From positions 1 through 47,777 of the forward strand of contig JBDRPD010000029.1 of the NCBI GenBank assembly GCA_043827405.1: 47,777 bases of DNA, read 5' to 3'. This DNA is from Elusimicrobiota bacterium (GTDB lineage: Bacteria; Elusimicrobiota; Elusimicrobia; UBA1565). This document shows positions 3,315-31,173 of the stretch, piece by piece. A program made the translations under genes and the position numbers. Under the pieces are notes generated by a model that was not told the origin of the DNA, ran no database searches, and saw nothing but the letters and a program-made list of their open reading frames with translations. Each line of letters opens with the position of its first letter. Positions within the stretch are counted from its first letter, which is position 1.

Positions 3315-5564
3315 ATGCGGGAAAACGGCGGCAGCCTGGAACAGGGCTATTCGTCATCGGGACACGGGTTCGGGACGGCGCCGGTATTCCTGGCGGCCAT
3401 CTGCACCATCCTGGGCGCCATCATGTTCCTGCGCTTCGGCTACGCCGTCGCGCACGTGGGCCTGCTCGGCGGTTTGATGATCATTGTCATCGGGCATCTC
3501 ATCACCATCCCGACGGCCCTGGCGGTCTCCGAGATCGCCACCAACCAAAAGGTGGAAGGCGGCGGCGAGTACTACATCATCAGCCGCTCGTTCGGAACCG
3601 CCATCGGCGGAACCATCGGGATTTCCCTCTACCTCTCGCAGGCCGTTTCCGTCGCCTTCTACCTCCTCGCCTTCGCGGAGGCCTTCCACCCGGTCTTTCG
3701 CTGGTTCAACGGGCTCGAGCTCCTGCCCTTCGCCGTCACCGATCCCCGGATAGTCAGCGTTCCGGCCATGGCGGTCCTGATCTTCGTCATGCTCAAGCGC
3801 GGCGCGGACGTGGGCGTGCGCCTGCTGTGGGTTGTCGCCGGAATCCTGGCGCTGTCTTTGGTAGCGTTCTTCCTGGGCGGAGGGACGGGCAACGCGACCG
3901 GGAACCTCATGGACACCGTCGCCGCTCCGCACAGCTTCAACAAGGTCTTCGCGATCTGCTTTCCGGCCTTCACCGGCATGACGGCCGGGGTCGGCTTGTC
4001 CGGAGACCTGCGCAACCCGCGCCGCTCCATCCCGGTGGGCACGCTGGCGGCGACGCTGGTCGGTATGCTCGCCTACGTGGCGATCGTGATCAAGCTGTGG
4101 CTCTCGGCCTCTCCCCAGGAGCTCGCCGCCGATCCGCTGATCATGGGGAAGATCGCCGTTTGGGAGCCCATCATCCTCATGGGGCTGGCCGCCGCCACGC
4201 TTTCATCGGCGCTGGGCTCGATTCTGGTCGCTCCGCGGACGCTCCAGGCCCTCGGCAACGACCAGATCCTGCCTTCCAGCAGGATCAACGCGCTCCTGGC
4301 GGCGGGCCGCGGCAATGTCAACGAACCCTTCAACGCCACCGTCGTATCCGGCGCGCTGGCCGCGACTATGGTCATTCTCGGCGACATCGACATGGTCGCC
4401 CAGATCATCAGCATGTTCTTCATGGTCACCTACGGCGCTCTCTGCGGCATATCCTTCCTGGAGCACTTCGCCGCCAACCCCTCTTACCGTCCGACCTTCC
4501 GCACCCGCTGGTACCTGTCCTTGGCCGGGCTCATCATGTGCGTGCTGATGATGTTCCAGATGAGCCCGCTCTACGCCATCCTGGCGATCGCGGTCATGCA
4601 CGCGATCTACTTCTGGCTGCGCGTCACCCACGCCAAGGAGCGCGACCTGACCGCGATCATCCAGGGCGTCATGTTCCAACTGACGCGCCACCTGCACGTA
4701 AGCGTGCAGAAGCAGTACGCCTCCACCCATGCCAAGGACTGGCGCCCCTCGGTCATCATGATCTCGGATGAAACCTTCGACCGCAACGAGGCGTTCGACC
4801 TCCTGCGCTGGCTCTCCCACCGCTACGGCTTCAGCACTCTGGTCCACTACATCCCCGGCAAGCTGTCGGAGGAGACGACCCACGAGTCCAGAAGGACGAT
4901 GGCCAAGCTCATCAAGATGACCGAAGGGAGCCGCGCCTCGGTGTTCGTGGATACCGTGGTCTCCCCGAACTTCGAGACCGCCCTGGCCCAGATGACGCAG
5001 ATGGTGGGAATCTCGGGGCTGGAGAACAATAGCGTCCTATTCGAGTTCGCCGCCGGGAACGCGGAAAAGATCGAGCGCATTGTCGGGGGCTGCCGCCTGG
5101 TCGCGGGCCTGGAGATGAACCTGCTGGTGCTGCGCTCCTCCGGGCACCGCTTCGGCTTCCGCAACCGCCTGCACGTATGGCTCACCGAGGAGGACGAGGT
5201 CAACGCCAACCTGCTGATCCTCCTCGCCTTCATCATCTCGGGACACCCGAGCTGGGACGACGCGGAGATCACCGTTTTCGCGAGCTTCCAGGCCGCCGAG
5301 CTCGAGAAGCAGCGCGAGCGCCTGGTCGAGAAGATCACCTCGGGCCGCCTCCCCATCTCCAAGAACCGGCTCCGCTTCTACCCCTTCACAGACGAGGAGC
5401 GGCTCGACGACCAGATCATCCGCTACTCCGGCCAGGCGGATCTCGTCCTGCGGGGGTTCTGCAAGGACGACCTGCAGGAGAACAAAGAGCAGATATTCAC
5501 CTCTTTGCCCGGGGTCCGGGACATCCTCTTTGTGCATTGCGCCCGCGGCATCGAGATCGTCTAA
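3315..5564 (+). CDS. SLC12/cation-chloride cotransporter-like APC-superfamily permease
   Basis: ILGAIMFLRFGYAV, SEIATNQKVEGGGEYYIISRSFG, FPAFTGMTAG, PSYRPTFR, WRP plus a soluble C-terminal domain. These are typical CCC motifs. Confidence 0.88.
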   Translation: MRENGGSLEQGYSSSGHGFGTAPVFLAAICTILGAIMFLRFGYAVAHVGLLGGLMIIVIGHLITIPTALAVSEIATNQKVEGGGEYYIISRSFGTAIGGTIGISLYLSQAVSVAFYLLAFAEAFHPVFRWFNGLELLPFAVTDPRIVSVPAMAVLIFVMLKRGADVGVRLLWVVAGILALSLVAFFLGGGTGNATGNLMDTVAAPHSFNKVFAICFPAFTGMTAGVGLSGDLRNPRRSIPVGTLAATLVGMLAYVAIVIKLWLSASPQELAADPLIMGKIAVWEPIILMGLAAATLSSALGSILVAPRTLQALGNDQILPSSRINALLAAGRGNVNEPFNATVVSGALAATMVILGDIDMVAQIISMFFMVTYGALCGISFLEHFAANPSYRPTFRTRWYLSLAGLIMCVLMMFQMSPLYAILAIAVMHAIYFWLRVTHAKERDLTAIIQGVMFQLTRHLHVSVQKQYASTHAKDWRPSVIMISDETFDRNEAFDLLRWLSHRYGFSTLVHYIPGKLSEETTHESRRTMAKLIKMTEGSRASVFVDTVVSPNFETALAQMTQMVGISGLENNSVLFEFAAGNAEKIERIVGGCRLVAGLEMNLLVLRSSGHRFGFRNRLHVWLTEEDEVNANLLILLAFIISGHPSWDDAEITVFASFQAAELEKQRERLVEKITSGRLPISKNRLRFYPFTDEERLDDQIIRYSGQADLVLRGFCKDDLQENKEQIFTSLPGVRDILFVHCARGIEIV

Positions 5565-5582
5565 GATTCAAAGCGCGCCGCG

Positions 5583-6650
5583 CTAGAGCCAGCCTTTCCG
5601 CTTGAAGTAGGCCGCCAGCCCCCCGCCGACCAGGAGCACCGCGGCCCAGAACATCGGGTATCCCCAGCGGAGCTTGAGCTCGGGCATGAACTCGAAGTTC
5701 ATTCCGTAGATGCCGGCCAGGAAGGTAAGCGGGATGAAGATGGCGGCGAATACGGTCAAGGTCTTCATGATCTCGTTCATGCGGCTGCTGATGCCGGAAA
5801 GATAGAGCTCGGTCAGCCCCGAGAGCATCTCCCGGTAGGAATCGACCGCTTCCACGATCTGGATGGTGTGATCGTACAGGTCCTTGATGTAGGGATGGGT
5901 CTCGTCCGCGACCATCTCATGCTCGCCCTTCTGCAGCCGGCCGATCGCCTCCCTAAGGGGCCAGACCGCCTTGCGCAGGTGGAGGATCTCCCGCCTCAGC
6001 CGCATGATCTCCAGCAAGGTCTGCTGCGATGAAGCGGCGAGAGCTTCTTCCTCCAGCCCCTCGATCCGCTCGCCCAAAGCAGCCGCGATGGAAAAGTAGC
6101 TGTCGACCACGGCGTCGATGAGCGCGTACGCCAGATAGTCCGCGCCGGCCTTGCGGATGCGGCCCTTGGCCTTGCGCAGCCGCTCCCGGACGCCGCCGAA
6201 CACGTCGCCCGGGCGTTCCTGGAACGAGATTAGAAAGTTCTTGGAAAAGACCACGCCGACGTTCTCGGAGGACACGAGAAGGGTCTTCTCGTCGAGCGTG
6301 AGGCTCTTGAGCACGACGAACAGATGCTCCTCGAACTCCTCCAGCTTGGGCCTTTGCCCCGCGCTGAGGACGTCCTCGAGCAGCAGGGGGTGCAGGCCGA
6401 ACGCCTCGCCGATTTTGCCGATCAGCCCGGCATCGTGGACGCCGTCCACGTCGATCCAGGCGACGCCGCCTTTGCCGGCGCGGTCCTTGAGCTCGGCGAC
6501 GTCCTTCACATCGCGCTCCTCGATGCGCTCGGCGTCGTAATCGATCAGCCTGACCGTGATGGCGTGCGAATCATGCGCGCCGGTATAGATCAGGGCTCCC
6601 GGCGGCAGCGACCGGGATTTCCGGGGAATCCGTTTGATTATCCTCGCCAT
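5583..6650 (-). CDS. corA: Magnesium/cobalt transporter CorA
   Basis: LHPLLLED..QRPKLEE, YGMNFEFMPEL signature, two C-terminal TM helices, SD AGAGGA. Confidence 0.95.
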   Translation of the reverse strand: MARIIKRIPRKSRSLPPGALIYTGAHDSHAITVRLIDYDAERIEERDVKDVAELKDRAGKGGVAWIDVDGVHDAGLIGKIGEAFGLHPLLLEDVLSAGQRPKLEEFEEHLFVVLKSLTLDEKTLLVSSENVGVVFSKNFLISFQERPGDVFGGVRERLRKAKGRIRKAGADYLAYALIDAVVDSYFSIAAALGERIEGLEEEALAASSQQTLLEIMRLRREILHLRKAVWPLREAIGRLQKGEHEMVADETHPYIKDLYDHTIQIVEAVDSYREMLSGLTELYLSGISSRMNEIMKTLTVFAAIFIPLTFLAGIYGMNFEFMPELKLRWGYPMFWAAVLLVGGGLAAYFKRKGWL

Positions 6651-7351: not shown

Positions 7352-7364
7352 ATTGATCCCAACC

Positions 7365-8861
7365 ATGCAAGGCGACCCGGCGCGACCAGAGCAGCAGCGA
7401 GGGCTGCGAAATTTCCTCCTAGAGAGCGTCACCGGGCAGGTCCTGGTCTCCCTGACCAGCGGGACCTTCGTGACCGCCTTCGCCGTCAAGCTCGGCGCTT
7501 CCAACGCGCAGATCGGGATACTGGCCGCCATCGCCGCCCTGTCCCAGCTGCTGCAGGTTCCGGCGGTCTATCTGATCAATCGTTTGCAGGACCGCAAGCC
7601 CATCGCCGCGGTAGGCTTCGCCCTCTCCAAGCTCTCCTGGTTATTGATCGTTGTGCCCGTATTATTCGGCGCCAGATCAGTTCCCATGGGGCTCTTGACC
7701 GCCACCGTGGCCTGCAGTTCCGCCTTCGCCGCGGTGGCGTTGTGCACCCGGAACTCCTGGCTGCGCGACGTGATCGGGCAGGACCAGATGGGCGCGTTCT
7801 TCGCCAAGCGGCTGGCCTACAGCAAGGCGGTGGGAATATTCACCGGGCTGGCGGCCGGCATCTTCGTGACCGTGTGGGCGAAGTACTCCCGGGAGACGCT
7901 GCTCTCCAGCTACGCCATTCTCTTCTCGGCCGGCATTCTCTGCGGTCTGATGAGCGTGTATTTCGTCTGGACCTCCCCGGAGCCGCCGAGAATCCCCATC
8001 GACGTCAAATTCCTTTCCTCGCTTTTGGAGCCGTTTCGCGACCGGAATTACCGGATGCTCATCATCTTCCTCGCGATGTGGAGCTTTTCGGTCAACCTCG
8101 CCGCCCCGTTCTTCACCGTATACATGCTCCAGCGGCTGCACTTCACCGTGGCTTTCGTAATGGCCCTCGCCGTCTTGAGCAATGTTATGAATCTGATTTT
8201 TTTCCGGTTTTGGGGCGCTTTCGCCGATCAGTTCTCGAACAAAGGTGTCCTCGCCGTTTGCGCTCCCCTGTGCATTATCTGCACCTTGTCCTGGGCTTTT
8301 ACGACCTTGCCTGAGCCGCACTTTTTGACCTTGCCGATGGTGGTGGCGATCCATGTCGTCGTCGGCGCGGCCAGCGCCGGCGTCATATTGGCCTCAAGCA
8401 ATATCGGCATGAAATTGTCCCCGCGGGCGAAGTCGGCGTCGTTTCTGGCCGCGAGCTCCATCGTGAGTTCCCTCGCCGCCGGAGTTGCCCCCATAATCGG
8501 CGGGCTGTCGGCGGACTACTTCGCCAGCCGGGAGCTGTCTTTGCTGCTGACCTGGAAAAGCCCCGAGCTGGACTTCGGCCTGCGGGCTATCAGCTTCCGG
8601 CATTGGGACTTCTTCTTCGCCATCGCCTTCGTGCTGGGTCTCTATTCATTGCGCCGCTTGTCCTTGGTTCAGGAAGAGGGTGAAGTCCAGCGCAAGGTCG
8701 CCCTCCGGGAATTCCTCCAGCGCCTGCGCGCCAACATGCTGGCGCTGACCACGGTTCGCGGCGTGCGGCAGTTCATCTTGCTGCCGGTCGAGTCCCTCCG
8801 GGATTTCACGGACGATGACGACATCCTGCCGCATGCGCGGCGGGAAGGAGCCGCCAAGTGA
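7365..8861 (+). CDS. MFS transporter
   Basis: About 12 hydrophobic segments; LGASNAQIGIL, PFRDRNYR, WGAFADQFSNK motifs. ATG 7365 preferred over TTG 7353. Confidence 0.88.
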   Translation: MQGDPARPEQQRGLRNFLLESVTGQVLVSLTSGTFVTAFAVKLGASNAQIGILAAIAALSQLLQVPAVYLINRLQDRKPIAAVGFALSKLSWLLIVVPVLFGARSVPMGLLTATVACSSAFAAVALCTRNSWLRDVIGQDQMGAFFAKRLAYSKAVGIFTGLAAGIFVTVWAKYSRETLLSSYAILFSAGILCGLMSVYFVWTSPEPPRIPIDVKFLSSLLEPFRDRNYRMLIIFLAMWSFSVNLAAPFFTVYMLQRLHFTVAFVMALAVLSNVMNLIFFRFWGAFADQFSNKGVLAVCAPLCIICTLSWAFTTLPEPHFLTLPMVVAIHVVVGAASAGVILASSNIGMKLSPRAKSASFLAASSIVSSLAAGVAPIIGGLSADYFASRELSLLLTWKSPELDFGLRAISFRHWDFFFAIAFVLGLYSLRRLSLVQEEGEVQRKVALREFLQRLRANMLALTTVRGVRQFILLPVESLRDFTDDDDILPHARREGAAK

Positions 8862-11761
8862 CCAGAGAAGCAGCGACCCTCATGAAGCAGGCCGCGCGGC
8901 TTGCCGTCGGAGCGGCGTTGGCGTGTGCGGGCCGGGCTTTCGCGGCGCCATGGAAGCCCATGGAGCCCCAGGAGGCGGCCGCGCTGATCGCGCGGATGCA
9001 AGCCAATCCTCGCGGTCCGTACGAGCGCGTGATGTGGCATTGCCGGGACGGCTCCATACTGCCCCCTGTATCGTACGGCTGCGCGGAACGCGGCGGCGGC
9101 CGCCAATACGGCATCCCGGGTGCGGACGCCAAGGAGCTCGCGGCGGCGGGCATATATGTCGGGACGGTCCTCTCCTCGCTGACGCCCGCCGACTTGACCG
9201 CCGAGGACTATTACCGCGCGCGCGCGTTCATCATCGAAAAATTCCTCGAGTCCACGCTCGACGGCTGGGCGCTGCGTTCGGCGAAGTCCTATCGCGGCTT
9301 CCGGCAGGCCGAGGACGAGGAGAAGGCCGCCCAATCCCTGCTGGCCGCCTTGGCCCGCGATGACGTTTGGGTCCGGCGTCATCGCTACCTAGCCGTGCGG
9401 CTGGCGAGATCCATGCCCGCCGGAGCGGATGAGAGCTTGGCCAACGATATACGCGCCTTGGCCACCCAACTGGCGGACAAAGATCCCGCCTTCCAGGGCA
9501 TACGCTCCAAGATCCACTCCATTATGGAGCCCGGCGACGCCAGCGCGGTGTTGAGCTACGCGGAAGCGGCTCCGGCGGTCGCGCCGCTGGCGAGGGAGCT
9601 GGCGGAGAAGATCAGGATGTATTATGACCCGCGCCAATGGCGGGGCCGCCTGCGGCGCATCAAGCGCTCCCTGTCGGACAAGCGGATCGCCGGCCTGATC
9701 GACGACCTGGTTTCCGGAGAGGTCGATGTCTTCGCGCGCATCCGGATCATCGAGGATCTGCTCGTCGCGGCGGACCGCGCGCTCGGCCAGCCCGCGTCCC
9801 GCGAGAATGGGAACCGCCCCCACCTGATCCATCTCATGAGCGCGCTGGAGGATATCCTGGCCTCAACGACCGCGCAGCTCAGAGGAGCGAGCATGTTCCG
9901 GCTGCAGGCGGTGGAGACCGCGGCGAGACTTCTTAGGTGCGCCCAGGCGCTCGGCATTATCTCGCAGCGCGAGCTGGAAGCCGCCGGGCCGGTCATGACG
10001 CGGATGCGGACGGGCGCGGGAGGAGATTACGTCGCCGGCTACCGCCAGCTGCTGCGTACCGCCGAGTGGTCGCGGGCCTTGGTGCTTTCCGAGCTGGGAA
10101 TCCCTATCGGCCGGTATGCCTTGGCGGAAGGCCGGGCGGCGCAGACCGTGGACGAGGTGCTGCGCAGCGGGGTGATGCTGCCGCTGGCGGTGATCGCGGA
10201 CCGCGTCGGCGCCGACATCGACTCGCTGCGGGGAAGGGATCACCGCCTCTACGGCGTGAAGGGCGGCGGGTTGCGGGGCGAGAACCAGGGCCTCGCCATC
10301 GGCCCGCTCCGCGTCCGGGAGCATTCCCAAGCGCTCAAGGGGCTCAAGCGCAACGACGTGGTGCTGCTCTACGAGCTCCCTTCGGAGCTGTCGCCGGTCG
10401 CCGGGATAATTACGGTAGGAGCGCCCGGCAGCCTCTCGCATGTCGCCCTGCTGGTGCGCAACCTGGGGATTCCCTTGGTCTCGGTGGATGGGGAGACGGC
10501 CGACGCGATCAAGGCGTGGGCGGGGCGGGAGGTGGTTCTGGGCGTCAGCGCGGGCGGGCGCGTGGTCATGGGCGAGCTCGGCGCTTTCAGCGAGGAGGAC
10601 CGGCGGCTCCTCGGCAGGTCGTCCGCCAAGGACCAGCCTTTCCTGCGCGTCCCGTACAAGTCGCTCGACCTTCGCTTCGCGGAGGTCCTGGCGCTGAGCG
10701 CGATCTCCGAGCGGGATTCCGGCGTGCGGGTCGGGCCCAAGGCCGCCGAGCTGGCCCGGCTAAAGCGGCTGTTCCCGGCGCGCGTGAGCGGCGCGGCGGT
10801 GCTGCCGTTCGGGCTGTTCGTCGCCCACGCCGACCGGCCGGGACCCGGCGGAGCCGCGTCACCCCTGGCGAGGCTGCGGTGGGCCTATGCGCAGGCGGCC
10901 GCCAAGAGCGTCGAGGAACGGGAGGGTTTTCTCTTGGCGGAGCTCGCGAGGTTCCGCAAGCAGATAATGGAGCTCCCCTTCCCGGACGGATTCGAGATCA
11001 AGATCGAAGCGGCGCTTGCGCGCCTGGGCATGCCCGAAACCTTCGGAGTCTTCGTCCGCAGCGACACCAATGTCGAGGATCTCAGGGAGTTCACCGGAGC
11101 CGGCCTGAACCTGACGGTGCCCAACGTCACGGCGCGCAGTTCGATTCTCGCGGCGATCCGCGCGGTATGGGCCTCGCCGTTCTCCGAGCGCTCCTATGCC
11201 TGGCGGCAGCGCGTTCTTCTTGATCCGGAGCATGTCTATCCTTCCGTCATCCTGCACAAGACCGTCCCGGCCGAGATATCGGGGGTCCTGGTGACGATGG
11301 ACATGGAGACGGGAGACCCCGGACAGATTACCGTGAGCGCCAGCGAGGGCGTGGCGGCGGTGGTGGACAGCGGCCTGCCGGAGACGATCGTCGTGCCCAA
11401 GCAGGGGGGGGCAGTCCGCTGGCTGTCCTCGTCCCGGACCTCGACCAAAAAGGCGGTTGCGGCGCCGCCGCAAGAGGGACTCGTGACGCTCCCCGCGGCG
11501 GGAGACGAGCCGCTCCTTGGAGCGGAGCGGATAGAGGAGATCCTGGGCGTAGTTTCCCGCCTGGAGTCGATCGAGCGGCCCGACCCGGCGGTGCCCTGGG
11601 ATGTGGAGTTCGGATTCGTGAAGGATCGGATGTTCCTTATGCAGCTGCGGCCGCTCAAGGCTTCCCGGTCGGCTGTCCGGCAGCCTTATTTGCGGCGGCT
11701 GGACCGGGAGGGCTCGGCGAAAATCGGCATGATCGACATGAACCGGCCGTTAACCAGGTGA
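8858..11761 (+). CDS. Signal-peptide-bearing PEP-synthase/dikinase-fold protein (phospho-His domain then ATP-grasp)
   Basis: MKQAARLAVGAALACAGRAFA-A leader (alternative start 8882); GSLSHVALLVRNLGIP His-swivel motif; VGPKAAEL, FVRSDTNVEDLREFTGAG, SGVLVT, DVEFG..LMQLRP nucleotide-binding motifs. Confidence 0.8.
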   Translation: MTREAATLMKQAARLAVGAALACAGRAFAAPWKPMEPQEAAALIARMQANPRGPYERVMWHCRDGSILPPVSYGCAERGGGRQYGIPGADAKELAAAGIYVGTVLSSLTPADLTAEDYYRARAFIIEKFLESTLDGWALRSAKSYRGFRQAEDEEKAAQSLLAALARDDVWVRRHRYLAVRLARSMPAGADESLANDIRALATQLADKDPAFQGIRSKIHSIMEPGDASAVLSYAEAAPAVAPLARELAEKIRMYYDPRQWRGRLRRIKRSLSDKRIAGLIDDLVSGEVDVFARIRIIEDLLVAADRALGQPASRENGNRPHLIHLMSALEDILASTTAQLRGASMFRLQAVETAARLLRCAQALGIISQRELEAAGPVMTRMRTGAGGDYVAGYRQLLRTAEWSRALVLSELGIPIGRYALAEGRAAQTVDEVLRSGVMLPLAVIADRVGADIDSLRGRDHRLYGVKGGGLRGENQGLAIGPLRVREHSQALKGLKRNDVVLLYELPSELSPVAGIITVGAPGSLSHVALLVRNLGIPLVSVDGETADAIKAWAGREVVLGVSAGGRVVMGELGAFSEEDRRLLGRSSAKDQPFLRVPYKSLDLRFAEVLALSAISERDSGVRVGPKAAELARLKRLFPARVSGAAVLPFGLFVAHADRPGPGGAASPLARLRWAYAQAAAKSVEEREGFLLAELARFRKQIMELPFPDGFEIKIEAALARLGMPETFGVFVRSDTNVEDLREFTGAGLNLTVPNVTARSSILAAIRAVWASPFSERSYAWRQRVLLDPEHVYPSVILHKTVPAEISGVLVTMDMETGDPGQITVSASEGVAAVVDSGLPETIVVPKQGGAVRWLSSSRTSTKKAVAAPPQEGLVTLPAAGDEPLLGAERIEEILGVVSRLESIERPDPAVPWDVEFGFVKDRMFLMQLRPLKASRSAVRQPYLRRLDREGSAKIGMIDMNRPLTR

Positions 11762-11765
11762 GCGG

Positions 11766-13079
11766 ATGAGGAGAACGTGCGCGCGAAGGTTGCTGGAGGG
11801 GGCGGTGTTGATTCTCGGCCTCGCCTGTCTGCGGCAGGGCGCGGCGGCCTACCCGACGGATGCGGGAGAACGGACGGGCATCCGCCGGTTGTTCTGGCAG
11901 GCCCAGGTCGATAGCGGGGCGGAGCGGGGGACTAAGAATCCGCCCGGTGGACGCTGGGGGTCCGAGCGGATCCGCTTGCGGCTATCGGGTGCGGGGGGGG
12001 AATTCCGTTTGTCCGAGAGCACTCCCAAGGACCCCGGCCTCCAGAAGGGGCTGCAGGACATATTAAAGCGCGGCGGATGGGAGTCCTACGGGGTGGCGAT
12101 CGTCGATCTCTCCAGCCCGGAGTCTCCGCGCTACGCGGCCGTCAATGAGCTCCGGCGGCAGATCCCCGGCAGCACGGCCAAGGTGCTGGCGGCGGCGGCT
12201 TTGCTGGAGGCGCTGCGGTCGCTATATCCCGGCGATATCCCGGCGCGCGAAGCGGCTCTGCGGACGATCCGGGTCCCGGCGGACGCTTGGGTCATGCCGA
12301 ACTCTCACGATGTGCCGATCGTATCGTCAGCCGGGGTGGTTAACCGGCCCATTCGTCCCGGCGACGTATTCTCGTTGTGGGAGTGGCTGGACCATGCCCT
12401 ATCCCCCAGCTCCAATGCCGCGGGGACCATGGTGTGGCGCGAGGCGGCGCTGCTGCGCTTGCTGCGGCGGCAGTATCCTCCTGCGGCATGGGACGGAAAG
12501 CTCTTCGGGCGCTGGAGCCGGCAGGATTTCACCACAGCCGTATTCGACGCGGTCGATGTCCCACAGGCTCGGGCCGGGCTCGATACGGACCTGTTTCGAA
12601 TCCGCACCTTCTTCACTGCGGGCGCCTCCCGCTACATCCACTCTTCAAGCAGTTTCGGGACTCCCCTGGGCCTGGCGCAGTGGCTGCTCGGCATGGAGCA
12701 GGGCCGGATCGTCGACTCGTGGTCCAGCCTGGAGCTCAAGCGCCTTCTGTACATCACGCGCCGGCGCATCCGCTATGCCGCGGCTCCGGAGCTGGCGGGG
12801 AGCGCTGTGTACTTTAAAAGCGGTAGTCTCTACAAGTGCAAACCCGAGGAGGACTTCACCTGCAAGAAGTATATGGGCAACGCCCAGAACATGCTGAACT
12901 CGCTGGCCCTTGTCGAGGTGCCGTCCGCGGAGCCCGACAACGGCGGTCATGATGGCATGGCCCATTCTTATATCGTGGCGGTGATGTCGAACGTGCTCAA
13001 GCGGAACTCGGCCGCGGATCATGCGCGGCTCGCGGGCGAAATCCACCGGCTCCTGACCGGCCGTCCTGCGAAGAAATGA
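11766..13079 (+). CDS. Exported serine hydrolase, class A beta-lactamase/PBP-like
   Basis: Signal peptide; SxxK (GSTAK), SxN (PSSN), KSG (FKSGS). Confidence 0.75.
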   Translation: MRRTCARRLLEGAVLILGLACLRQGAAAYPTDAGERTGIRRLFWQAQVDSGAERGTKNPPGGRWGSERIRLRLSGAGGEFRLSESTPKDPGLQKGLQDILKRGGWESYGVAIVDLSSPESPRYAAVNELRRQIPGSTAKVLAAAALLEALRSLYPGDIPAREAALRTIRVPADAWVMPNSHDVPIVSSAGVVNRPIRPGDVFSLWEWLDHALSPSSNAAGTMVWREAALLRLLRRQYPPAAWDGKLFGRWSRQDFTTAVFDAVDVPQARAGLDTDLFRIRTFFTAGASRYIHSSSSFGTPLGLAQWLLGMEQGRIVDSWSSLELKRLLYITRRRIRYAAAPELAGSAVYFKSGSLYKCKPEEDFTCKKYMGNAQNMLNSLALVEVPSAEPDNGGHDGMAHSYIVAVMSNVLKRNSAADHARLAGEIHRLLTGRPAKK

Positions 13080-14026
13080 AACTTGGAACCGCGACTTTCG
13101 CCGTCGCTCTCCTGGCGGTCTTTGGCCTTCTTGCCTTCGCGGGCGAGGATGCGCTGCCGCCTGTCGAGCTGGACGCCAAGGGCTACCCGATAGGAGAAGC
13201 GGCCCTCAGCTGCCGGGCGAACTATCCCCTGCTGCGAAAGAACGCGGAGCTGACGGCCGCGCTGACCACCGCGTTGGAGAAAGCGGGATACGCGGAGGCG
13301 GTCAGGAAGAAGAAGCTGGCGGTGTCCATAGTCGACCTGACTCCCCCCAAGCGTATTTATTACGCGGCGACCAACGGCAACCATATGATGTACGCCGCCA
13401 GCCTGCCGAAGATCGCCGCGCTTCTCGCCTACGTGGAGGCGGTCAAAGGAGGCCGGCTGCCCTGGAACGACGCGGTCCGGGAGCGGCTCTCCCGCATGAT
13501 CAACGCTTCAAGCAACAAGGACGCTACATGGGCGATCGAGCAGGTCGGTCTCGAGTACATTGAGACGGTCCTGCGCAAGCCGGGCCGGTGCTTTTACGGC
13601 GACCGCTACGGCGGGCAGTGGCTGGGCAAGCCCTATCGGAAAGACAGCAAAGCGAGGCGGGATCCCCTGCGCGGGCTTTCCCACGGCGCCACGACGCGGC
13701 AAACTGCGCGCTGGTTCGTGCTGCTCGCCAAGGGGCTGTTGGTCGATTCAGTGAGCAGCGAGCGGATGATGGGGGTGATGAGCCCGCCGAAAAAAAATCA
13801 CAAGTTCGTCAAAGGGCTGGGTTCGGTGAAGGGTGTGCGCATCCTGGCGAGAAAAAGCGGGACCTGGCGGACCTACCACTCCGACAGCATCCTGGTCGAG
13901 CACGATAACGGCGTCCGCTATGTGGCGGTCGGGATGCTGGACCACCCCAAAGGGGGGAGAATTCTCACCGAGATGATAGGGATCATCGACAAGCTGATGG
14001 TCGAGGGAAAGCACCGCGCGCCTTAG
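13076..14026 (+). CDS. Exported serine hydrolase, class A beta-lactamase/PBP-like
   Basis: Signal peptide; YAASLPKI (SxxK), ASSN (SxN), RKSGTW (KTG-like). ATGA overlap with the previous gene. Confidence 0.82.
   Translation: MKLGTATFAVALLAVFGLLAFAGEDALPPVELDAKGYPIGEAALSCRANYPLLRKNAELTAALTTALEKAGYAEAVRKKKLAVSIVDLTPPKRIYYAATNGNHMMYAASLPKIAALLAYVEAVKGGRLPWNDAVRERLSRMINASSNKDATWAIEQVGLEYIETVLRKPGRCFYGDRYGGQWLGKPYRKDSKARRDPLRGLSHGATTRQTARWFVLLAKGLLVDSVSSERMMGVMSPPKKNHKFVKGLGSVKGVRILARKSGTWRTYHSDSILVEHDNGVRYVAVGMLDHPKGGRILTEMIGIIDKLMVEGKHRAP
13986..14023 (+). repeat. Direct repeat B, copy 1 (3' end of the serine hydrolase gene; copy 2 at 17142-17179)
   Basis: TCGACAAGCTGATGGTCGAGGGAAAGCACCGCGCGCCT vs TCGCCAAACTGATGGTCGAGGGAAAGCACCGTACGCCT: 34/38 identical, 23-bp perfect core. 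Confidence 0.9.
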
Positions 14027-17712: not shown

Positions 17713-19026
17713 ATGGCGACGGGATCACTGGCCGTTTCCGCGCTCAAGCAGCTTTTAGACGCCGACCCGAAACGCGCGGCGATATGGTGCGAGAGCGTCG
17801 ATTCGCAAAAGGCGGCGGCTCTCTTGTCCGCGCTTCCGGAAGCAAGCCTGCAGTTGTGCTTCAGGCACCTGAACCCCTCCTTCGCGGGCCAGGTCTTGGC
17901 CGGGATGAGGCCGCAGCGGGCTTCCTCGCTGCTGGAAGGGCTCGACGAGCAGATAGCGGCGGAGGCTTTTCGCACGATGGAAAACGGCGCGCGCCTGGCG
18001 GTGCTGGATTCCCTCTCCCCCAGCCGCAAGCAGGCGCTGCAGGAACACTTGTCTTATCCCGAAGACAGCGCGGGACGGCTGATGAAAACGGATTTCGCCG
18101 CTTTTCCGCAGGGGATGAAGGTGCGCGATGTGATCGGACGGCTGCGCGCGGCGGTCAAGAAGGGGTCGCCTCCGGCCTACGCCTACGTGGTCGGCGATGA
18201 CCGGAAGCTCAAGGGAGTCCTGGTCATGCGCGACCTGCTTTTTGCGGATCCGGGGGCGCCGATCGAGAGTACGATGGCGATCGGAGTGAAGGCCGTTTCC
18301 GCGTTCACGGATCGCGAGGAGCTGGTGCAGCTGGCGCAGGACCGGCGTTACCTGGCGGTTCCGGTGGTGGACGCGGAAGGGCGGATTCTGGGATCGGTCC
18401 GCATGGCGGAGCTCCTGGAATCGAGCCAGGAAGAGGCCAGCGAGGACCTGCAGCTCATCTTCGGCGTCGGCGCGGACGAGAAGCCGTTTTCGCCGATTTC
18501 CTTCAAGGTGCGCCAGCGGCTGCCGTGGCTTCAGGTCAACCTGATGACCGCGTTTATGGCCGGTGCCGTGGTGGCCTTGTTCGAGGACCTCATCACCAAG
18601 CTCGCCGTGCTGGCGGTATTTCTGCCTATCATCGCGGGTCAGGCCGGGAACGCGGGGACGCAGACCATGGCCGTCATCCTGCGCGGATTGATCATGCGGG
18701 AGATCAAGCCCCGGGACGCTTGGCGGGCTATCGGCACCGAGATGGGCGTGGGCGCGATCAACGGCGTGTTCACCGGCGTGGTGACCGCCGTGGTGGCTTG
18801 GCTGTGGAAGGGGAATCCTTTTCTGGGGCTCGTGGTGGGGCTGGCGATGATTGTCAATCTGGTCGTCGCCGGCGCCGCGGGGGCCGCTATACCGCTGGCC
18901 ATGAAGAGGCTCGGCTTCGATCCGGCCCAGTCCTCCGGCATCATCCTGACCACGGTTACCGATGTGGTGGGGTTCTTCGCCTTCCTGGGATTAGCCGCCA
19001 TCTTCCAGGCGCGGTTGGTCGGCTAG
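17713..19026 (+). CDS. mgtE: Magnesium transporter MgtE
   Basis: YPEDSAGRLM, CBS pair, RLPWL, AGNAGTQT, DPAQSSG..TTVTD. Confidence 0.95.
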   Translation: MATGSLAVSALKQLLDADPKRAAIWCESVDSQKAAALLSALPEASLQLCFRHLNPSFAGQVLAGMRPQRASSLLEGLDEQIAAEAFRTMENGARLAVLDSLSPSRKQALQEHLSYPEDSAGRLMKTDFAAFPQGMKVRDVIGRLRAAVKKGSPPAYAYVVGDDRKLKGVLVMRDLLFADPGAPIESTMAIGVKAVSAFTDREELVQLAQDRRYLAVPVVDAEGRILGSVRMAELLESSQEEASEDLQLIFGVGADEKPFSPISFKVRQRLPWLQVNLMTAFMAGAVVALFEDLITKLAVLAVFLPIIAGQAGNAGTQTMAVILRGLIMREIKPRDAWRAIGTEMGVGAINGVFTGVVTAVVAWLWKGNPFLGLVVGLAMIVNLVVAGAAGAAIPLAMKRLGFDPAQSSGIILTTVTDVVGFFAFLGLAAIFQARLVG

Positions 19027-19645: not shown

Positions 19646-20674
19646 ATGCCAGGGATTCTCGCGGCCCTCATCCTGCTGCTCGCGTCGGCCCCCGCGGCCG
19701 CGCGCAAGCTTCCTACCGACAAAGCGACCCAGAGCATCGCCGCCGATATCGAGAAGCAGATACCCAAGCAGAGCCGTGTGCTGATCGCCGACCTCAACGA
19801 TCTGGACGGCCGCATCACCTACTTCGGGCGCTATCTTTCCGACAAGCTGGAGACCGCTTTGGTCATGCGTAAGCCGGATTTTGTCGTCGTCGACCGCAGC
19901 AAGCTCGACCTCACGCTGGAGGAAATCCAGCTGCAGAAGGCGGGGCTCATCGATGATGCCACCATAACGCAGCTGGGGAAGATGCTCGGCGCCAGCGTCA
20001 TCGTCTACGGCAGCGTTACCGACCTCGACGACGCGATCGATATCGACGTGAAGATCCGCAATATCGAAACTTCGGCCGCGCTGGGCGGCGCGACGCGCAA
20101 GCTCAAGAAAACCGCGCGCCTGGCGCAGCTGGTGCGCACCGTCATCAAGACCGAGCAGGACAAGGAGCGGGAACTGGAGGAGTACCGGGCGAAGGTCCGC
20201 AAGGATATCGAGATCGACCGGGATAGGCGGATCGCGGCGATTAAGAGCGAAGAAGCGGAGAAGCGGGCGAAGCTGGCCGAGCTCGACAAGGAAATGCGCC
20301 TAAAGTCCGAGGTCCTCGCCGAGTACGAGCGCAAAAAGCAGGCGCTCGACGGACAGGAGGCGCGCCTGTCGGAGATTCACTCCGAGATCGGGCGGCTCAA
20401 CCGCGGCGTGCCGGGCAAGCTCAAGGTCGGCATGACCCTGGCGCAGGTCAACGCGGCGCTCGAGCTCCAGCCGGAGCTTACGCCCGACGACGAGGGCTGC
20501 TATCTGGTCGGCCGCTACTTTCTGCTGTTCCAGGGCGGGGCGCTCAGCGGCGTGATCCTAAACGGCAGCGTCGGCGAGATCAAGTCCCCGTATTCCCGGA
20601 GCTTCTTTAAGGGTACGCTGACGGTGGACAGCTGCGCGACGGCCGCGGCTTTCGGGAAGAACCGCGCGCGATGA
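19646..20674 (+). CDS. Exported FlgO/CsgG-like domain protein with a coiled-coil segment
   Basis: Signal peptide; VVDRSKLDLTLEEIQLQ..GLID...LGKMLGASVIVYGSV (CsgG/FlgO-like), then a long charged helix. Confidence 0.65.
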   Translation: MPGILAALILLLASAPAAARKLPTDKATQSIAADIEKQIPKQSRVLIADLNDLDGRITYFGRYLSDKLETALVMRKPDFVVVDRSKLDLTLEEIQLQKAGLIDDATITQLGKMLGASVIVYGSVTDLDDAIDIDVKIRNIETSAALGGATRKLKKTARLAQLVRTVIKTEQDKERELEEYRAKVRKDIEIDRDRRIAAIKSEEAEKRAKLAELDKEMRLKSEVLAEYERKKQALDGQEARLSEIHSEIGRLNRGVPGKLKVGMTLAQVNAALELQPELTPDDEGCYLVGRYFLLFQGGALSGVILNGSVGEIKSPYSRSFFKGTLTVDSCATAAAFGKNRAR

Positions 20675-21837
20675 CTTTCCGGCTTATCGCCCTCCTGGTC
20701 CTGTGGACCGCGCCCGCGGCCGCGCAGGAAGACGGCGCGATCCGCAGCGAGAGCGGCCGCGTTCAATTCGAGTTCGACCTGGAAGACGTCAAGCGGCCGG
20801 AGCCCGCGCCTCTCCAAGCGATAAAGATCGCTCCCCGGCCCAGCCCCGCGCCCCCCCAGCCCACTCCCAAACCCAAGCCCACTCCCAAACCCAAGTCCCC
20901 GATGGCCAAGAATGTGCCGCCGGCGAAGCCGGCTCCAGCGCCGCAAAAAGCCGCGCCGCGAATTGAACCCGTCGTCAAAGTCGAGCCGCCGCCCGCCGCA
21001 CCCGCGCCGGAACGCGGCGGCCGCGCGCTGCTGCTGCTGGGCGCGGTCGTGTTTGCCGCGGGCTGCATTTGGTTTTTGCTGCGGCGGCGGGAGCCGGAAG
21101 AAAGCTCTCCCGCGATCGCGGATGCGCCGGCTCCCGTCGAAGATTCGGCGGCGGCTCCGGGTGACGAACGGTTCAAGTTCAAGCGCGTTATCTCTGAAGG
21201 CGAAGGCCGCGCCGTCTGGGAGGCTCGCGACAACGAGCTGCAGCGCGATGCGGCCGTGAAAAGGCTCTTCGGCCTGGACGCGGATGAGCGGCGGCGGCTC
21301 ATGCGGGATGCCCGGGCGGCCGCCGCGCTCAAGCATCCGAATATTCTCGAGGTCTACGATGTCGTCGAGTGCGGCGACGAGCTCCGGCTGGTCTGCGAGC
21401 TGATGCGCGGCAAGACGCTGCGCGACTTCCTGCGGGCCCGCAAGCGCCTGCCGCTGTACCTGGCGGTCATGACCTTGACGCGGGTGTGCCGCGCGCTGGA
21501 ACATGCGCATGCGAACGGAATCGTGCACGGCGGGCTGGAGCCCGCGCGCGTTATGGTAAGCGACTGCGGCGACGTCAAGGTTATGGGTTTCGGCCTCGCG
21601 GGAGAAGCGAAGCCGGCGGCGGACGTGCGCGCGCTCGGCGTCTGCTTCTATCAGCTGCTGACCGGCGCCCCGCCGGAGCCGACGGGCGACTATGTTCCCG
21701 TTAACAGTAGTATCCCCGAACTGCCGCCGGAAGTCGACGCGCTTATCGCGGCGGCGCTGCGCGGAGAGCTTAGCGGCGCGTCACCGTTCGCGGCCCGAAT
21801 GGCCGCGCTCCCCATGGTCGGCCATACCGCCGCCTGA
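20671..21837 (+). CDS. Membrane-anchored Hanks-type protein kinase-like protein, probable pseudokinase
   Basis: Signal peptide, Pro-rich linker, TM; AAVK, LKHPNILEVYD. The catalytic motifs are HGGLEPAR and VMGFG instead of HRDLKPxN and DFG. Confidence 0.8.
   Translation: MTFRLIALLVLWTAPAAAQEDGAIRSESGRVQFEFDLEDVKRPEPAPLQAIKIAPRPSPAPPQPTPKPKPTPKPKSPMAKNVPPAKPAPAPQKAAPRIEPVVKVEPPPAAPAPERGGRALLLLGAVVFAAGCIWFLLRRREPEESSPAIADAPAPVEDSAAAPGDERFKFKRVISEGEGRAVWEARDNELQRDAAVKRLFGLDADERRRLMRDARAAAALKHPNILEVYDVVECGDELRLVCELMRGKTLRDFLRARKRLPLYLAVMTLTRVCRALEHAHANGIVHGGLEPARVMVSDCGDVKVMGFGLAGEAKPAADVRALGVCFYQLLTGAPPEPTGDYVPVNSSIPELPPEVDALIAAALRGELSGASPFAARMAALPMVGHTAA
20858..20895 (+). repeat. 18-bp in-frame tandem duplication in the Pro-rich linker (PTPKPK x2)
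   Basis: AGCCCACTCCCAAACCCA twice. Confidence 0.85.
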
Positions 21838-21849: not shown

Positions 21850-22764
21850 CTACTGCCCCCAGCGCATCCCGAGGCTGATCTGGTGCGAGGCGCCGAGCTC
21901 GCCGCAGGGGACGAGAGCGTAATCGAAGCCGTAGTCCTTCAGTATCAGCCCGAAGCCGAAGGAGAATCCGGGACCCGCATCGTTGCGCGTGTTCTGCCCG
22001 AAGCGTACGACGAACCGTTCGTAGAACGTCGCGGCGGCGCCCGCGTTGATGACGAGCTCGCGCTCCGACGCTTTGTTGAGGTCCAGGGAAACGCCGACCG
22101 GCACGCCGAAAACGGGCAGGCTCAAGGCGGCGCCGCCCCGTACGTTGAGCGGCAGGGGCTCCGACTGCGACTGAAACCGCACCTTGGTGCCGATATGCTG
22201 CACCGCGAGCCCGAGGACCAGTCCCGGCTCCTCCATGACGACCGCCTGCAGACCCAGGTCGCCCGCCCAGGCCGCCCCCGCGGTGTCGTCGATGGTCTGC
22301 CGGATGTATTTGATCGCCGCGCCCGTGGTCAGCCCGTCAAAGACCGTTATCCCGATGCCGGCGGCGATGACGGTGGCCGCGGGCTGGAAGCCGCTGGTCC
22401 CCGCCCCCGAGGGGTTGGACAGCGTCGTGCGGCCGATCTCGCCGAATGTCAAGCGGTCAAAGCTGAGGCCGAAACCGGAGCGCAGCGCGGCCGCGATGCG
22501 TTCGCGCTGGACGCTCTGAAATTGGCTGGTGTGCATAAACGACGCGTGATTCCGGTCGAGGGATGCGAGGCCGGCGGGATTGTAGGCGAGAACGTTGGCG
22601 TCGTTGCGCCCCGCCGTAAAGGCCCCGCCCAGGGCCGATTGGCGCGCGCCGCTCTCCATGAACAGGAAGTCGAAGGGGTCCGCCCCGGCGAAGCAGGACG
22701 CGGCGCGCGGCCGGCAAGCCGCCGCCAGCAGCAGAAGCGCGAGGAGCGCAAGGCGGCGGCTCAT
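21850..22764 (-). CDS. PorV/PorQ (UPF0164)-family beta-barrel protein
   Basis: FLFMESGARQSALGGAF...YNPAGLA, GAAIKYI, LPLNVRGG, DYALVPCGELGASHQISL. Start 22764 (MSRRLALL...) overlaps the upstream stop (ATGA). Confidence 0.85.
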   Translation of the reverse strand: MSRRLALLALLLLAAACRPRAASCFAGADPFDFLFMESGARQSALGGAFTAGRNDANVLAYNPAGLASLDRNHASFMHTSQFQSVQRERIAAALRSGFGLSFDRLTFGEIGRTTLSNPSGAGTSGFQPAATVIAAGIGITVFDGLTTGAAIKYIRQTIDDTAGAAWAGDLGLQAVVMEEPGLVLGLAVQHIGTKVRFQSQSEPLPLNVRGGAALSLPVFGVPVGVSLDLNKASERELVINAGAAATFYERFVVRFGQNTRNDAGPGFSFGFGLILKDYGFDYALVPCGELGASHQISLGMRWGQ

Positions 22765-25700
22765 CGGATTATGGCGATCTTGCGCACGATCGCGTTCTCC
22801 CCGTCGCTGGTAATGACCGCGAAGTAGATGCCGGAAGCGACCTCGCGGCTGTCGCCGTTGCGCGCGTCCCAGCGGTAGATGCCGCCGGCGGAGATCAAGC
22901 GGCTCTCCCATACCAGCGAGCCGTTAACCGTATAGATCTTGATCTTCGATGAGGGCGTCAGGTTGTCGAACAGGATGCCCGAGGTGGAGTCGCCCGCGCT
23001 GTAGGGCTTGCCCTCGTCGGGATTGCCGCCGTTGGGCTTGTACGGCACCGGATAGACGCGTACCGCGCTGAGATCGCCGGCGCTGGGCGAAAACAGCCCG
23101 AATAGGCTGAAATGCGGCGTATAGCCGATGACGGTGGAATAGTCGTCGCCGGCGACGCCGCTGGGAAAATCACGCTTCCAGGAGGCGCTCGCGGCATCGT
23201 AGACGTAGATGGCCAGGTTGTCCACGCGGACCGTCGTGCCGTCGACCCGGTTGTCGTTGTCGCGGTCGAGCCGGGAAAAGCGCAGCGCTGCGGTCCGGCC
23301 GGCGGCCAGATCCGTCTGCCCGTTGGCGAGCGTGATTTCGCGGAATATGCCGGGGTTGCCCAATGTCCACGGCAGCGCCGGAGTCACTGTCGGGCTGCTG
23401 ATGATCTGCAGGTAGGTGGAGTCCGTATTGAGCGCTCCGGAGGCGATGGTGATGCGGGTCAGCACCGCGCTGCCGGCATCGGCCAGCGTAGTTTCGATGG
23501 GGACTGTGTTGCGCACGCGCGTGCGCTGCTGGATGCTGCCGCCCACGACGCGTTCATCCACGTCCGGATCACTGGTGTTTACGAACAGGCGGATCGGTGT
23601 CGGGAAGGGATCATCGCCGCCGCCGGCGTCGCGGGCGACGGCGCGCAGGTCATAGGCGTTGTCGGGCAGGGCGGTGACGTCCCAGTGCACGGCGTAGGGA
23701 AATTCTGTCGCAGGATTCGGATGGCCGGCTTCCTGCGGCGTGATGTCGGTCCAGTTGGGTGCGCCTACCAGGCGGTACTGAAACAGTACGCGGCTGACCT
23801 GCGCCGGGGAGCCCTGCGCCAATTCGGCGACGATTCCGACCCGGTCGCCCGACACCTTCGCGGTATTGGGGGGGTGGGTGATATGAGCCGCGGCGGGAAA
23901 CGGCGCCGTCAGAGCCACCACGGAGGCGACGACGGAGGTGTTCACCTCTTCCAGTCCGGTTTCGTCGCGCGCGCGCAGGGCGAAAAGATAGGTCGTTCCG
24001 TCGGCCAGCGCTCCGGTGGTGTAGGAAGTGGTGGGGCTGGTAACACTGGCGAACAAGACGCCGTAATCGACCGTCCCCGTGCCGCCGTCGCTGTAGATGC
24101 TGTAGCGGACAACGGTAGTGGTAGGCGAAATGGACCATTCCAGAAGCACCCGGGCGCCGCTTAAGGGTTCGGCGCGAAGTCCGCCGGGCGGCTCGGGCGC
24201 GCTGCCGACCAGAAAGGTGCTGACGACGACATCGAAGGAGGTGGGGATGTTCTCGAAGTTCAGGGCGCGGACGCGGAAGTAATGGGTTGTGAGGCCCAGC
24301 AGCGAGAATGCGCTGATGGTTTTGGTCGAGGCGCTCCCCGCCAGCGTGTACGACGTGAACGCGATATACTGCGCGGCGTCGGTCGAATGCTCCACTTCAT
24401 AGGTGGTCAGAAAGTCCGAGTTCTGGCTGGTGCTCCATGCCATGGTGATGCTGGAGACGAAGACGCCGGTGATCTGGCTGTTGGCGGGAGGATTGGCCTG
24501 CGTATAGATCGTGGTCGCTGGAGAGAGAACACCGACGCCGGAATTAGTGACGGGGGCCACCTGCAGTACATGGCGGCTGCTGGGGCCGAGCCCGGTTTCC
24601 ACCAAGGTCGTTGTCGTTGTTGCGGCGATGACGGCGCTGCGGTCGTTGAGGGCGCCGGTCCCCGAGGCGATGTAGAGGTCGTAGCGGTCGACGGCGGGCC
24701 CGCCCGTATTGATCCAGTTCCAGGTGATGGAAGTGATGCCGACCTGCGAGGTCGTCGGCGCGGCGAGCCGGGACGGGTGCGTCGGCGTGGACAGGGGGGC
24801 GGCAAAGAGGGTTAGGTATTCCGCGGCGCTCTTCGCTCGGATCTTGAACCAGTAGGTCGTCCCCGCCTCCAGGTTCCCCTGCGAGGTGAACGAGCTGATG
24901 AAGTTGGCGGAAAAGGGCAAGGGCGTGGAGATATCGGTCGCGAAGTCGTCGGTGGAGCGCAGCAACTCGTATGGCGTGCCGATTGGATTATTGGCCCGGT
25001 CCCAGGTCAGGTTGATCGTGGTCGAACTGGTGAACGTCGCGTTCAGCCCGGCGGGCGCCGCCGCGAACGTGTAGGTGGAGGCGTGCGCGCTTAGGCCGCC
25101 CGAGCCGTGGCTGTTAAACGGCTCGACGTAGATGCTGTTGACCGTATTGGTGGCCAAGATGGTCCCGGTGTAGTTGGTGGCGCTGATGGTCGCGACGACG
25201 ACGTTGGCCGTGGGGTTGTAGACGCGGTACTGCACCGCGGGTCCCCCGGAGTTCCAGCTCCAGCTCATCGATGTGATCCCGATGTCGGTTATGGTGAGCC
25301 CCGTGAGCGGGGGCGGGCGCGTATGCGTGGAGACGGTCGCGGAGAAGCTGGAGATAAACGCGTTGCCGTTGCGGGCGCGGACGCGGGCATAGTAGGTGGT
25401 TCCGAGCTCGAGCGCCAGGACGTCGGTCGTCGTCTGCGTCCAGTTGTCGGTGAACACCACCGGCGTCGAGACGATGGTGGCGAAATCATCGGTCGAGATG
25501 GAGATTTCGTACGGGGTGTTGTTGGCGTTGTCGTTCTTGCCCCAGGCAAGGGTGAGGCTTGACAGGTAGACCCCCGTTATCGCGGGGCTGTCGGGAGGGT
25601 TGGCCAGGGTGAAGACGCTGCCGTTGGTCCCGGTATCGGTGGAGGAGAACATGTCGTCCGGCGCCGCCACGTGAGCGAGGACGCTTACGAAGATGAGCTG

Positions 25701-30270: not shown

Positions 30271-31173
30271 GTGAGCTGGTGCGACGACTTCATTAGGCTG
30301 TTTCCGCAAGCCCGGCTCAATGAGCCGATGCGCCGGCATTCGACTTACCGCATCGGCGGACCGGCGGATGTCTATCTCGAGGCGTGCAGCGTTGCTGACC
30401 TCGTATGCCTGTATCGGTTGACGCGTCGGCATAAGCTGCCCGTCCTCGTGCTCGGCTGGGGTTCGAATCTCCTGGTTCGGGACGGAGGCATCCGGGGCGT
30501 CGTCGTGCGTCTGCGCGGCGAATTCGAGCGCGTCGAGATGTTGGGAGAGACGATCGTGCGCGCCGGGGCGGCGGTGCGGCTGCCGCAGCTGGTGATGCGT
30601 TGCGCCGAACGCGGCTTAACGGGGGCGGAGTCTCTGGTCGGTGTGCCGGGGACGGTGGGCGGGGGACTGGTGATGAACGCGGGTACCCCGAACGGGGCGA
30701 TCGGCGACTTGGTTCGCGCGGTCGAAGTGTTCGATCCCGGATCGCTTAAGGTCCGGCGGCTGACGCGAAGCCGTATTCGCTTCGCGTACCGCAGCAGCAG
30801 TCTGCGCAAGCGCATCGTTATCGCCGGGACGCTCGAATTGCGTCGAGGAATCAAAGTTGATATAATCAAAACCGTCAAGGATTTCCAGCGCCAGCGGCAG
30901 AAGACCCAGCCCATACATACCTTCAACGTGGGCTCTGTTTTTAAGAATCCTCCCGGTTGTTTTGCGGCGAAGCTGATCCAGGACGCAGGTCTGAAGGGAA
31001 AAACTTTAAGAGGGGCGAAGGTGTCCGATTTGCACGCGAATTTCATTGAAAATTACGATCATGCGAGCGCCGCTGATGTGCTGGAGCTGGTGGCCGTGAT
31101 ACGGGATACCGTGCGCAAGCGAACAGGCATCGGCCTCGAACTGGAGATGAAGGTCGTTGGTGAGAAGGCGTAG
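30271..31173 (+). CDS. murB: UDP-N-acetylenolpyruvoylglucosamine reductase
   Basis: TYRIGGPAD, LGWGSNLL, GVPGTVGGGLVMNAG, GSVFKNP, HANFI. Confidence 0.96.
   Translation: MSWCDDFIRLFPQARLNEPMRRHSTYRIGGPADVYLEACSVADLVCLYRLTRRHKLPVLVLGWGSNLLVRDGGIRGVVVRLRGEFERVEMLGETIVRAGAAVRLPQLVMRCAERGLTGAESLVGVPGTVGGGLVMNAGTPNGAIGDLVRAVEVFDPGSLKVRRLTRSRIRFAYRSSSLRKRIVIAGTLELRRGIKVDIIKTVKDFQRQRQKTQPIHTFNVGSVFKNPPGCFAAKLIQDAGLKGKTLRGAKVSDLHANFIENYDHASAADVLELVAVIRDTVRKRTGIGLELEMKVVGEKA

Follow-up and report, generated by a model that had tools for sequence, protein, structure and literature searches.

The window analysed here is a 47,777-nucleotide stretch of an Elusimicrobiota bacterium (GenBank assembly GCA_043827405.1, contig JBDRPD010000029.1, positions 1 to 47,777), and it encodes three consecutive proteins with predicted export signals: a dikinase of the glucan,water dikinase (GWD) and phosphoglucan,water dikinase (PWD) family, named DK, and two SxxK serine enzymes, named H1 and H2 (hydrolases 1 and 2). 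These genes and the MFS gene upstream all lie on the + strand, and a convergent AsmA-like gene comes after H2. The three open reading frames (ORFs), their junctions, their motifs and the position of the catalytic His codon are as the original prediction gave them. The features are the following:

8858..11761, + strand: DK, exported GWD/PWD-family dikinase of 967 aa, or 959 aa if the start is ATG 8882
8858..8944, + strand: DK signal peptide, predicted from sequence and a family-wide hydrophobic leader, with cleavage after residue 29
8957..9412, + strand: DK N-terminal subdomain, specific to the family (about residues 34-185) and containing the pair Cys62/Cys75
9413..10243, + strand: DK acceptor domain, all helical and homologous to the central domain of GWD/PWD, with R199, K218-x-H220, D227, D/E433 and R436
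10244..10627, + strand: DK phospho-histidine swivel domain, with the His528 codon at 10439-10441
10667..11680, + strand: DK ATP-grasp (PPDK_N) nucleotide-binding domain
11766..13079, + strand: H1, exported class A/PBP-A-like SxxK enzyme with insertions
13076..14026, + strand: H2, exported SxxK enzyme, Pfam Beta-lactamase2
7353..8861, + strand: MFS_1 transporter (Pfam MFS_1), which adjoins DK upstream and lies outside the conserved module

The MFS gene had been described as abutting DK, with a GTGA overlap if DK starts at 8858. The adjacency stands, while the overlap is uncertain because the closest relative of DK, a protein of an Elusimicrobiota metagenome-assembled genome with 80% identity, starts at the codon corresponding to ATG 8882.

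Pfam and the structure model place the ATP-grasp at the C-terminus of DK and the His swivel domain before it. Among 162 relatives, 142 are full-length and form the basis of the residue counts for DK. His528 is kept in 141 of them, as is the ATP-grasp residue Arg734, and Lys628, Asp741 and Arg931 are kept in all 142, so the phospho-His motif and C-terminal ATP-grasp first noticed in the single protein are near-invariant across its family. Cys62 and Cys75 are each kept in 139 of the 142. A strongly hydrophobic stretch within the first 35 residues is present in 133/142 relatives and in 6/103 cytoplasmic-type PWD-like controls, both scored by the same hydrophobicity rule rather than by SignalP; seven DK entries have leaders too short for scoring, which are probably truncated start calls. 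The cleavable signal peptide proposed for DK thus extends to an export signal of the whole family. DK, H1 and H2 are very probably exported through signal peptides, a call based on conservation and not on fractionation, and one that the conserved Cys pairs also favour. From its sequence, DK is classed as a catalytically complete, exported dikinase of the GWD/PWD type.

The N-terminal subdomain of DK, which occupies the place of the carbohydrate-binding module (CBM) in the plant enzymes, is mixed alpha/beta in the structure model, unlike a CBM, carries the invariant R146-G-x-x-Q150-x-E-D-E154 motif, and has no Pfam or PDB match. The model of residues 34-462, with a pLDDT of 93.5 and 20 helices, has no clear PDB match either. 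An invariant R-x-K-I-H...D stretch at residues 216-227, which resembles GWD/PWD, prompted a test of homology. An Atlas search with residues 185-590, in which both sides of the comparison are predicted models, gives matches to GWD1_pHisD clusters with TM scores of 0.52-0.62, among them 0.62 across 348 residues and 0.58 across 331, and one of the matched clusters carries CBM20. The match lengths exceed the His domain of about 125 residues and are therefore not explained by that domain alone. A profile built only from the N-terminal domain of DK, excluding the His and ATP domains, matches 95 of 120 listed bacterial PWD-like proteins at E<=1e-3, and neither 120 reversed decoys nor 25,549 genome ORFs contain a match. 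The hhalign comparison of the same domain with the PWD-like set gives a probability of 94% and an E-value of 1.4e-7 over 319 columns, and pairs K218-x-H220 and D227 of DK with the same residues of that set. D432-E433-x-x-R436, in which the Arg is kept in 136/142 relatives, aligns with the PWD-like motif that precedes the His domain and has the spacing of E900/E901/R904 of StGWD1, residues proposed to aid transfer (PMC13553574). The acceptor domain itself, beyond the order of domains, is homologous to the central domain of GWD/PWD.

This homology strengthens the glucan-water-dikinase domain order recognised in the original prediction, and it makes a glycan hydroxyl the probable acceptor. DK is not classed as a GWD or PWD proper because it lacks a CBM and falls below the PF22973 cut-off: Pfam GWD1_pHisD (PF22973) scores 11.2 bits on DK against a cut-off of 27 and reaches E<=1 in 2/15 family members, and no CBM20 or CBM45 match is found in DK or in 68 N-terminal domains. 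A homologue search with the N-terminal domain, set for longer proteins, returned DK-family members only. In a tree of ATP-grasp domains with a single outgroup, the DK family is the sister clade of GWD/PWD and forms a separate exported branch beside them. A PF22973 search of 201 genomes returned four bacterial GWD/PWD-like genes, and a search of 201 genomes of the phylum of genome G204 returned no match. One bacterial PWD-like gene has at least 1160 relatives, many of them labelled phosphoglucan,water dikinase by JGI; many PWD-like relatives are fused to a PF01261 TIM-barrel domain and are of cytoplasmic type. No paper on bacterial glucan dikinases was found in the literature searched.

H1 and H2 are distant paralogues. 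Their SxxK, SxN and K(T/S)G motifs are near-invariant in both families, with the nucleophile codons at 12171-12173 (Ser136 of H1) and 13400-13402 (Ser109 of H2), and signal peptides, judged by eye, occur across both. The nearest solved relative of H2 is the cyanobacterial penicillin-binding protein (PBP) PBP-A (Tll2115), with an E-value of 1.8e-7; H1 matches H2 at 99% and the class A enzyme CTX-M weakly, at the SxxK helix (E 0.024). Among 67 H1 sequences there is no conserved acidic residue between positions 278 and 296, with the omega-loop register inferred without a structure. Leu198 of H2 aligns with a Leu of PBP-A, replaced by Glu in the 2j9o variant, a position that we take to be the equivalent of Glu166, and the nearby Asp196 is conserved in 50/55 sequences. 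Because neither protein shows a Glu166-type residue, a point less settled for H2 in view of Asp196, they seem to be penicillin-binding or acyl-transfer enzymes and not beta-lactamases. H1 carries a Cys358/Cys366 pair and a mature N-terminus, Tyr-Pro-x-Asp, right after the signal-peptidase site (11850-11864), with the Tyr kept in 65/67 sequences; this fixed N-terminus suggests a role for the free N-terminal residue.

All ORFs were clustered across the best 80 related loci, which come from Acidobacteriota, Bacteroidota, Gammaproteobacteria, Deltaproteobacteria/Myxococcota, Gemmatimonadota and others. Four conserved families emerge. H1 is present in 69 of the 80 loci, H2 in 53, an NTT-like carrier in 44 (counted with a profile to which 42 of these neighbours themselves contributed), with all three together in 39; when the count is confined to the 59 loci that extend 5 kb or more downstream, the figures are 54, 43, 37 and 33. 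The link of DK to two exported, catalytically intact SxxK/SxN/KSG proteins is therefore conserved among its relatives. Apart from opposite-strand or shifted-frame shadows, by our own reading, no fifth neighbour recurs in more than 5 loci, so the substrate should be one already common to all these diderm phyla. DK and H1 form the tightest pair and remain together when the module splits. H2 stands beside an NTT in 4 of 13 unlinked NTT regions, and the module can thus divide into DK with H1 and H2 with NTT.

The conserved carrier matches Pfam TLC (PF03219) in 12 of 15 proteins tested, 11 of them over the cut-off, and its profile matches solved NTT1 structures with E-values of 2e-37 and 9e-32; TIGR00769 stays far below its cut-off. 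The linked NTTs have single-domain, HEAT or HEAT-cNMP forms and are spread over several separate branches of their tree, for which reason the DK-NTT pairing looks repeatedly recruited. Nine DK genomes without an adjacent NTT all have one elsewhere. The ATP source is thus likely an NTT/TLC carrier, absent from the window and adjacent to DK in most relatives. The MFS transporter had been put forward as a candidate ATP link and was rejected: it recurs in only 1/80 loci, namely L001, and the protein of the window (7353-8861) matches MFS_1 only, with no match to the NTT profile at E 10.

At least 590 stretches of a species-level genome set encode DK relatives (590 of 599 pattern matches listed), and the named ones are mostly labelled PEP synthase or PEP/pyruvate-binding protein. 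Sampling of 200 further genomes from the phylum of the window gave no DK, although L001, of the same phylum, carries it. The DKs of the window and of L001 group with one Bdellovibrionales and one Myxococcota copy in the ATP-grasp tree (support 0.999), which fits a lateral acquisition in this lineage. Co-occurrence was counted across 251 genomes of the Flavobacteriaceae, to which Algibacter luteus belongs: 53 of them have DK, 60 have NTT and 52 have H2. A strong NTT-HEAT match and H2 mark one and the same set of 52 genomes, each of which also has DK, and the single DK outside this set is a partial match; these genomes are kin and do not represent 52 independent events. By our own count from coordinate tables, DK is no more than 10 kb away from 46 of these 52 NTTs. 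In the remaining 8 NTT genomes DK is absent and the carrier is of a weaker, single-domain type. Of 7 Flavobacteriaceae regions that lack DK, 5 have a single-domain NTT immediately before a gene of 307 aa whose product has a twin-arginine-like leader, presumably an aldo/keto reductase by its appearance, and this NTT could possibly supply a nucleotide cofactor to the exported protein.

We tentatively propose that these genes encode a periplasmic glycan-phosphorylation module of four components, three of them in the window. An inner-membrane NTT/TLC antiporter would deliver ATP to the periplasm, probably in return for spent nucleotide; its linkage to DK makes this step fairly probable, and either of two NTT genes unlinked to the module would fill the role in this genome. 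The C-terminal ATP-grasp of DK would bind ATP and phosphorylate His528 with release of AMP and phosphate, as expected by homology, and the His domain would then swivel to the GWD/PWD-type helical domain, where the beta-phosphate would be transferred to a sugar hydroxyl. By the same homology the acceptor is rather likely a glycan. Identifying this glycan with peptidoglycan or muropeptides, a polymer that H1 and H2 would also act on as PBP-like DD-peptidases or transacylases, is a possible assignment short of an even chance. The order of steps, phosphorylation followed by enzymatic attack, is drawn by analogy with GWD, which phosphorylates starch ahead of hydrolases. Peptidoglycan is the first choice because the module has no synthase or hydrolase of its own, its partners have the PBP fold, and markers of osmoregulated periplasmic glucan (OPG) synthesis were not found in carriers: MdoG is absent from all 251 Flavobacteriaceae and from this genome, and GH94 occurs in 9/251, in frames of at most 1122 aa, two of them in DK carriers, and is absent from this genome. 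The full proposal, in which many diderm bacteria deliberately export ATP through NTT to power a periplasmic third branch of the GWD family that phosphorylates the peptidoglycan strand or muropeptides, so that two PBP-fold enzymes can remodel them, is more doubtful still. Of the substrates named in the original prediction, glycan and peptidoglycan are retained in this conditional sense, and the antibiotic-like option has the least support.

Several observations weigh against this interpretation. The first Atlas structure search, with DK residues 34-462, listed no GWD entry, and the four bacterial GWD/PWD-like genes sit in glycogen-type clusters, with neighbours read by eye. Known GWD and PWD act on alpha-glucan (PMC13553574) and not on beta-1,4 amino-sugar chains. 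The OPG markers searched for were MdoG and GH94, and the Caulobacter-type and GH17-type glucan synthases lie outside that set. The SxxK fold is no proof of activity on peptidoglycan, because EstG, which has this fold, acts on a periplasmic glucan (bioRxiv 10.1101/2022.04.12.488081). The overlap between the NTT profile and the neighbours it counts, and the kinship of the Flavobacteriaceae, reduce the weight of the linkage. The window has no adjacent NTT; the two NTT genes of this genome, at C39:18535-19800 and C50:211830-213086 on other contigs, neither adjoin the module nor lie deep within a linked clade. They are weak evidence for a link to the module, since no NTT is adjacent here and NTT is present in 17/110 other genomes of the same phylum and DK in 0/200. 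The C39 carrier also has other potential clients: two ORFs with signal-peptide-like leaders and, by our own reading, atypical protein-kinase-like motifs, C39:20295-21431 (+) and C39:4178-5326 (-), lie about 0.5 kb and 13 kb from it and may be further periplasmic ATP users. They have no significant Pfam, NCBIfam or PDB match, one of them giving only a weak HipA_2 hit (E 0.064), and a GH114 gene comes next after the first of them.

The same NTT-fed periplasmic DK could instead act on a glucan, either alpha-glucan brought in from outside or a so far uncharacterised one of the periplasm or cell surface, with H1 and H2 as EstG-like esterases or acyltransferases. This alternative ranks second and is unlikely overall; in its favour, the acceptor domain is of the GWD/PWD type, whose known substrates are alpha-glucans, EstG provides a precedent, and this genome has glycogen-synthase-family genes. 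Against it, no CBM was found in DK, MdoG and long GH94 proteins were not found in the carriers, and the genes that recur around DK in the 80 loci include no glycoside hydrolase, SusC/D or glucan synthase; moreover, H1 and H2 have SxN and are class A/PBP-A-like, whereas EstG is class C-like. The tight pairing of DK and H1, which persists when the module splits, would also suit an ATP-dependent periplasmic ligase, in which DK activates a carboxylate or carbonyl as PigC/RedH-like enzymes do and the SxxK serines take and transfer the acyl group, for instance to re-energise trimmed peptidoglycan stems. The ATP-grasp of DK weakly matches PigC/RedH models, and H1 lacks a conserved omega-loop acid, which in our reading favours transfer over hydrolysis. 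The homology of the acceptor domain with glucan dikinases, whose motifs are kept, makes such a ligase improbable.

The direction of transport is a further point, as all characterised NTTs are importers (PMC5381601), and NTT occurs without DK in 8/251 Flavobacteriaceae and 17/110 genomes of the phylum of the window. The carrier might then import scavenged nucleotides, with DK using ATP that leaks or arrives in the periplasm or directing phosphotransfer towards nucleotide salvage. We give this little credence, since one NTT-HEAT type is gained and lost together with DK and H2, and water dikinases release phosphate and are poorly reversible. A cassette that inactivates antibiotics or xenobiotics, composed of a rifampin-phosphotransferase-like kinase and beta-lactamases, would agree with an ATP-grasp fold closest to RPH, with the class A-like fold of H1 and H2 and with the patchy, transferred distribution. 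The acceptor domain is not RPH-like, however; the NCBIfam RPH model scores 76.7 against 999 bits in a match confined to the ATP-grasp, no Glu is seen at the class A deacylation position of H1 or, less certainly, of H2, and the genes are strongly conserved in marine and sediment lineages, so that the cassette is decidedly improbable. Source names such as 'phosphoenolpyruvate synthase' and the PPDK_N match would make DK an ordinary cytoplasmic PEP synthase, an assignment that can practically be set aside: DK has a conserved signal peptide, no match to the pyruvate-binding TIM-barrel family and no N-terminal nucleotide domain, and the NCBIfam score is 89 bits against cut-offs of at least 598.

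Other genes of the window lie on either side of the module. An SLC12-like amino-acid permease and CorA and MgtE transporters are encoded at 3315-6650 and 17713-19026. A CsgG/LpoB-like exported protein, whose gene overlaps one for a Ser/Thr protein kinase, lies at 19646-21837 (+); a 1682-aa Kelch/fibronectin-III protein with a weak match to CHU_C, a type IX secretion signal, lies at 22761-27809 (-), next to a UPF0164 gene at 21850-22911 (-). The dcw genes murB, ftsQ, ftsA and ftsZ are found at 30271-34334.

No description of the DK module was found in the literature searched, a coverage outside which most subscription journals and supplements fall. The periplasm is generally regarded as having no ATP that enzymes could use. 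Carriers of the NTT type in gut Bacteroidetes have reportedly been tied to cell-wall metabolism, a report that the literature search did not find. In a 2026 preprint (10.64898/2026.09.25.754361) GWD serves to mark eukaryotes that make starch, and PMC5381601 describes the role of NTT carriers in free-living bacteria as unknown. The module allows a direct test of periplasmic ATP supply and of the role of free-living NTTs in culturable marine Flavobacteriaceae, and it adds to the starch-kinase family an exported branch in bacteria, whose substrate is probably not the same. If the proposal is true, the module would be an ATP-driven, previously unknown modification of the cell wall and a bacterial counterpart to the plastid pairing of NTT1 with GWD. 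From the original prediction, the exported phospho-His dikinase with GWD order and two SxxK partners is carried forward, and the MFS gives way to an NTT as the ATP link.

Among known systems, GWD1, PWD and the bacterial PF22973 relatives share with DK the order acceptor, His and ATP-grasp, and a helical acceptor domain with K-x-H...D and acidic-x-x-Arg motifs. DK differs from them by its signal peptide, its Cys pair and another N-terminal subdomain in place of CBM20 or CBM45, and its partners are PBP-fold enzymes and NTT, whereas those of GWD/PWD are enzymes of glycogen or starch metabolism. Rifampin phosphotransferase, PEP synthase, PPDK, HpeI and PigC/RedH also combine an ATP-grasp with a phospho-His swivel domain, but they have the nucleotide domain first, are cytoplasmic and have unrelated acceptor domains. 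PBP-A (Tll2115), class A beta-lactamases and EstG of Caulobacter share the SxxK/SxN/KxG motifs with H1 and H2, which differ in having no visible Glu166-type residue and in being tied to a dikinase; H1 stands out further by its large insertions, its Cys pair and a mature N-terminus fixed as Tyr-Pro. NTT-HEAT-cNBD fusions of free-living bacteria have no known function, and no link to an exported dikinase is mentioned for them, in the accessible part of PMC5381601. The NTT/TLC carriers of Chlamydia and plastids (NTT1, PDB 9j3n/9j3j) resemble the neighbours of DK in their PF03219 and NTT1-structure matches, while the DK-linked NTTs are set apart by their free-living hosts and by the proposed direction of export.

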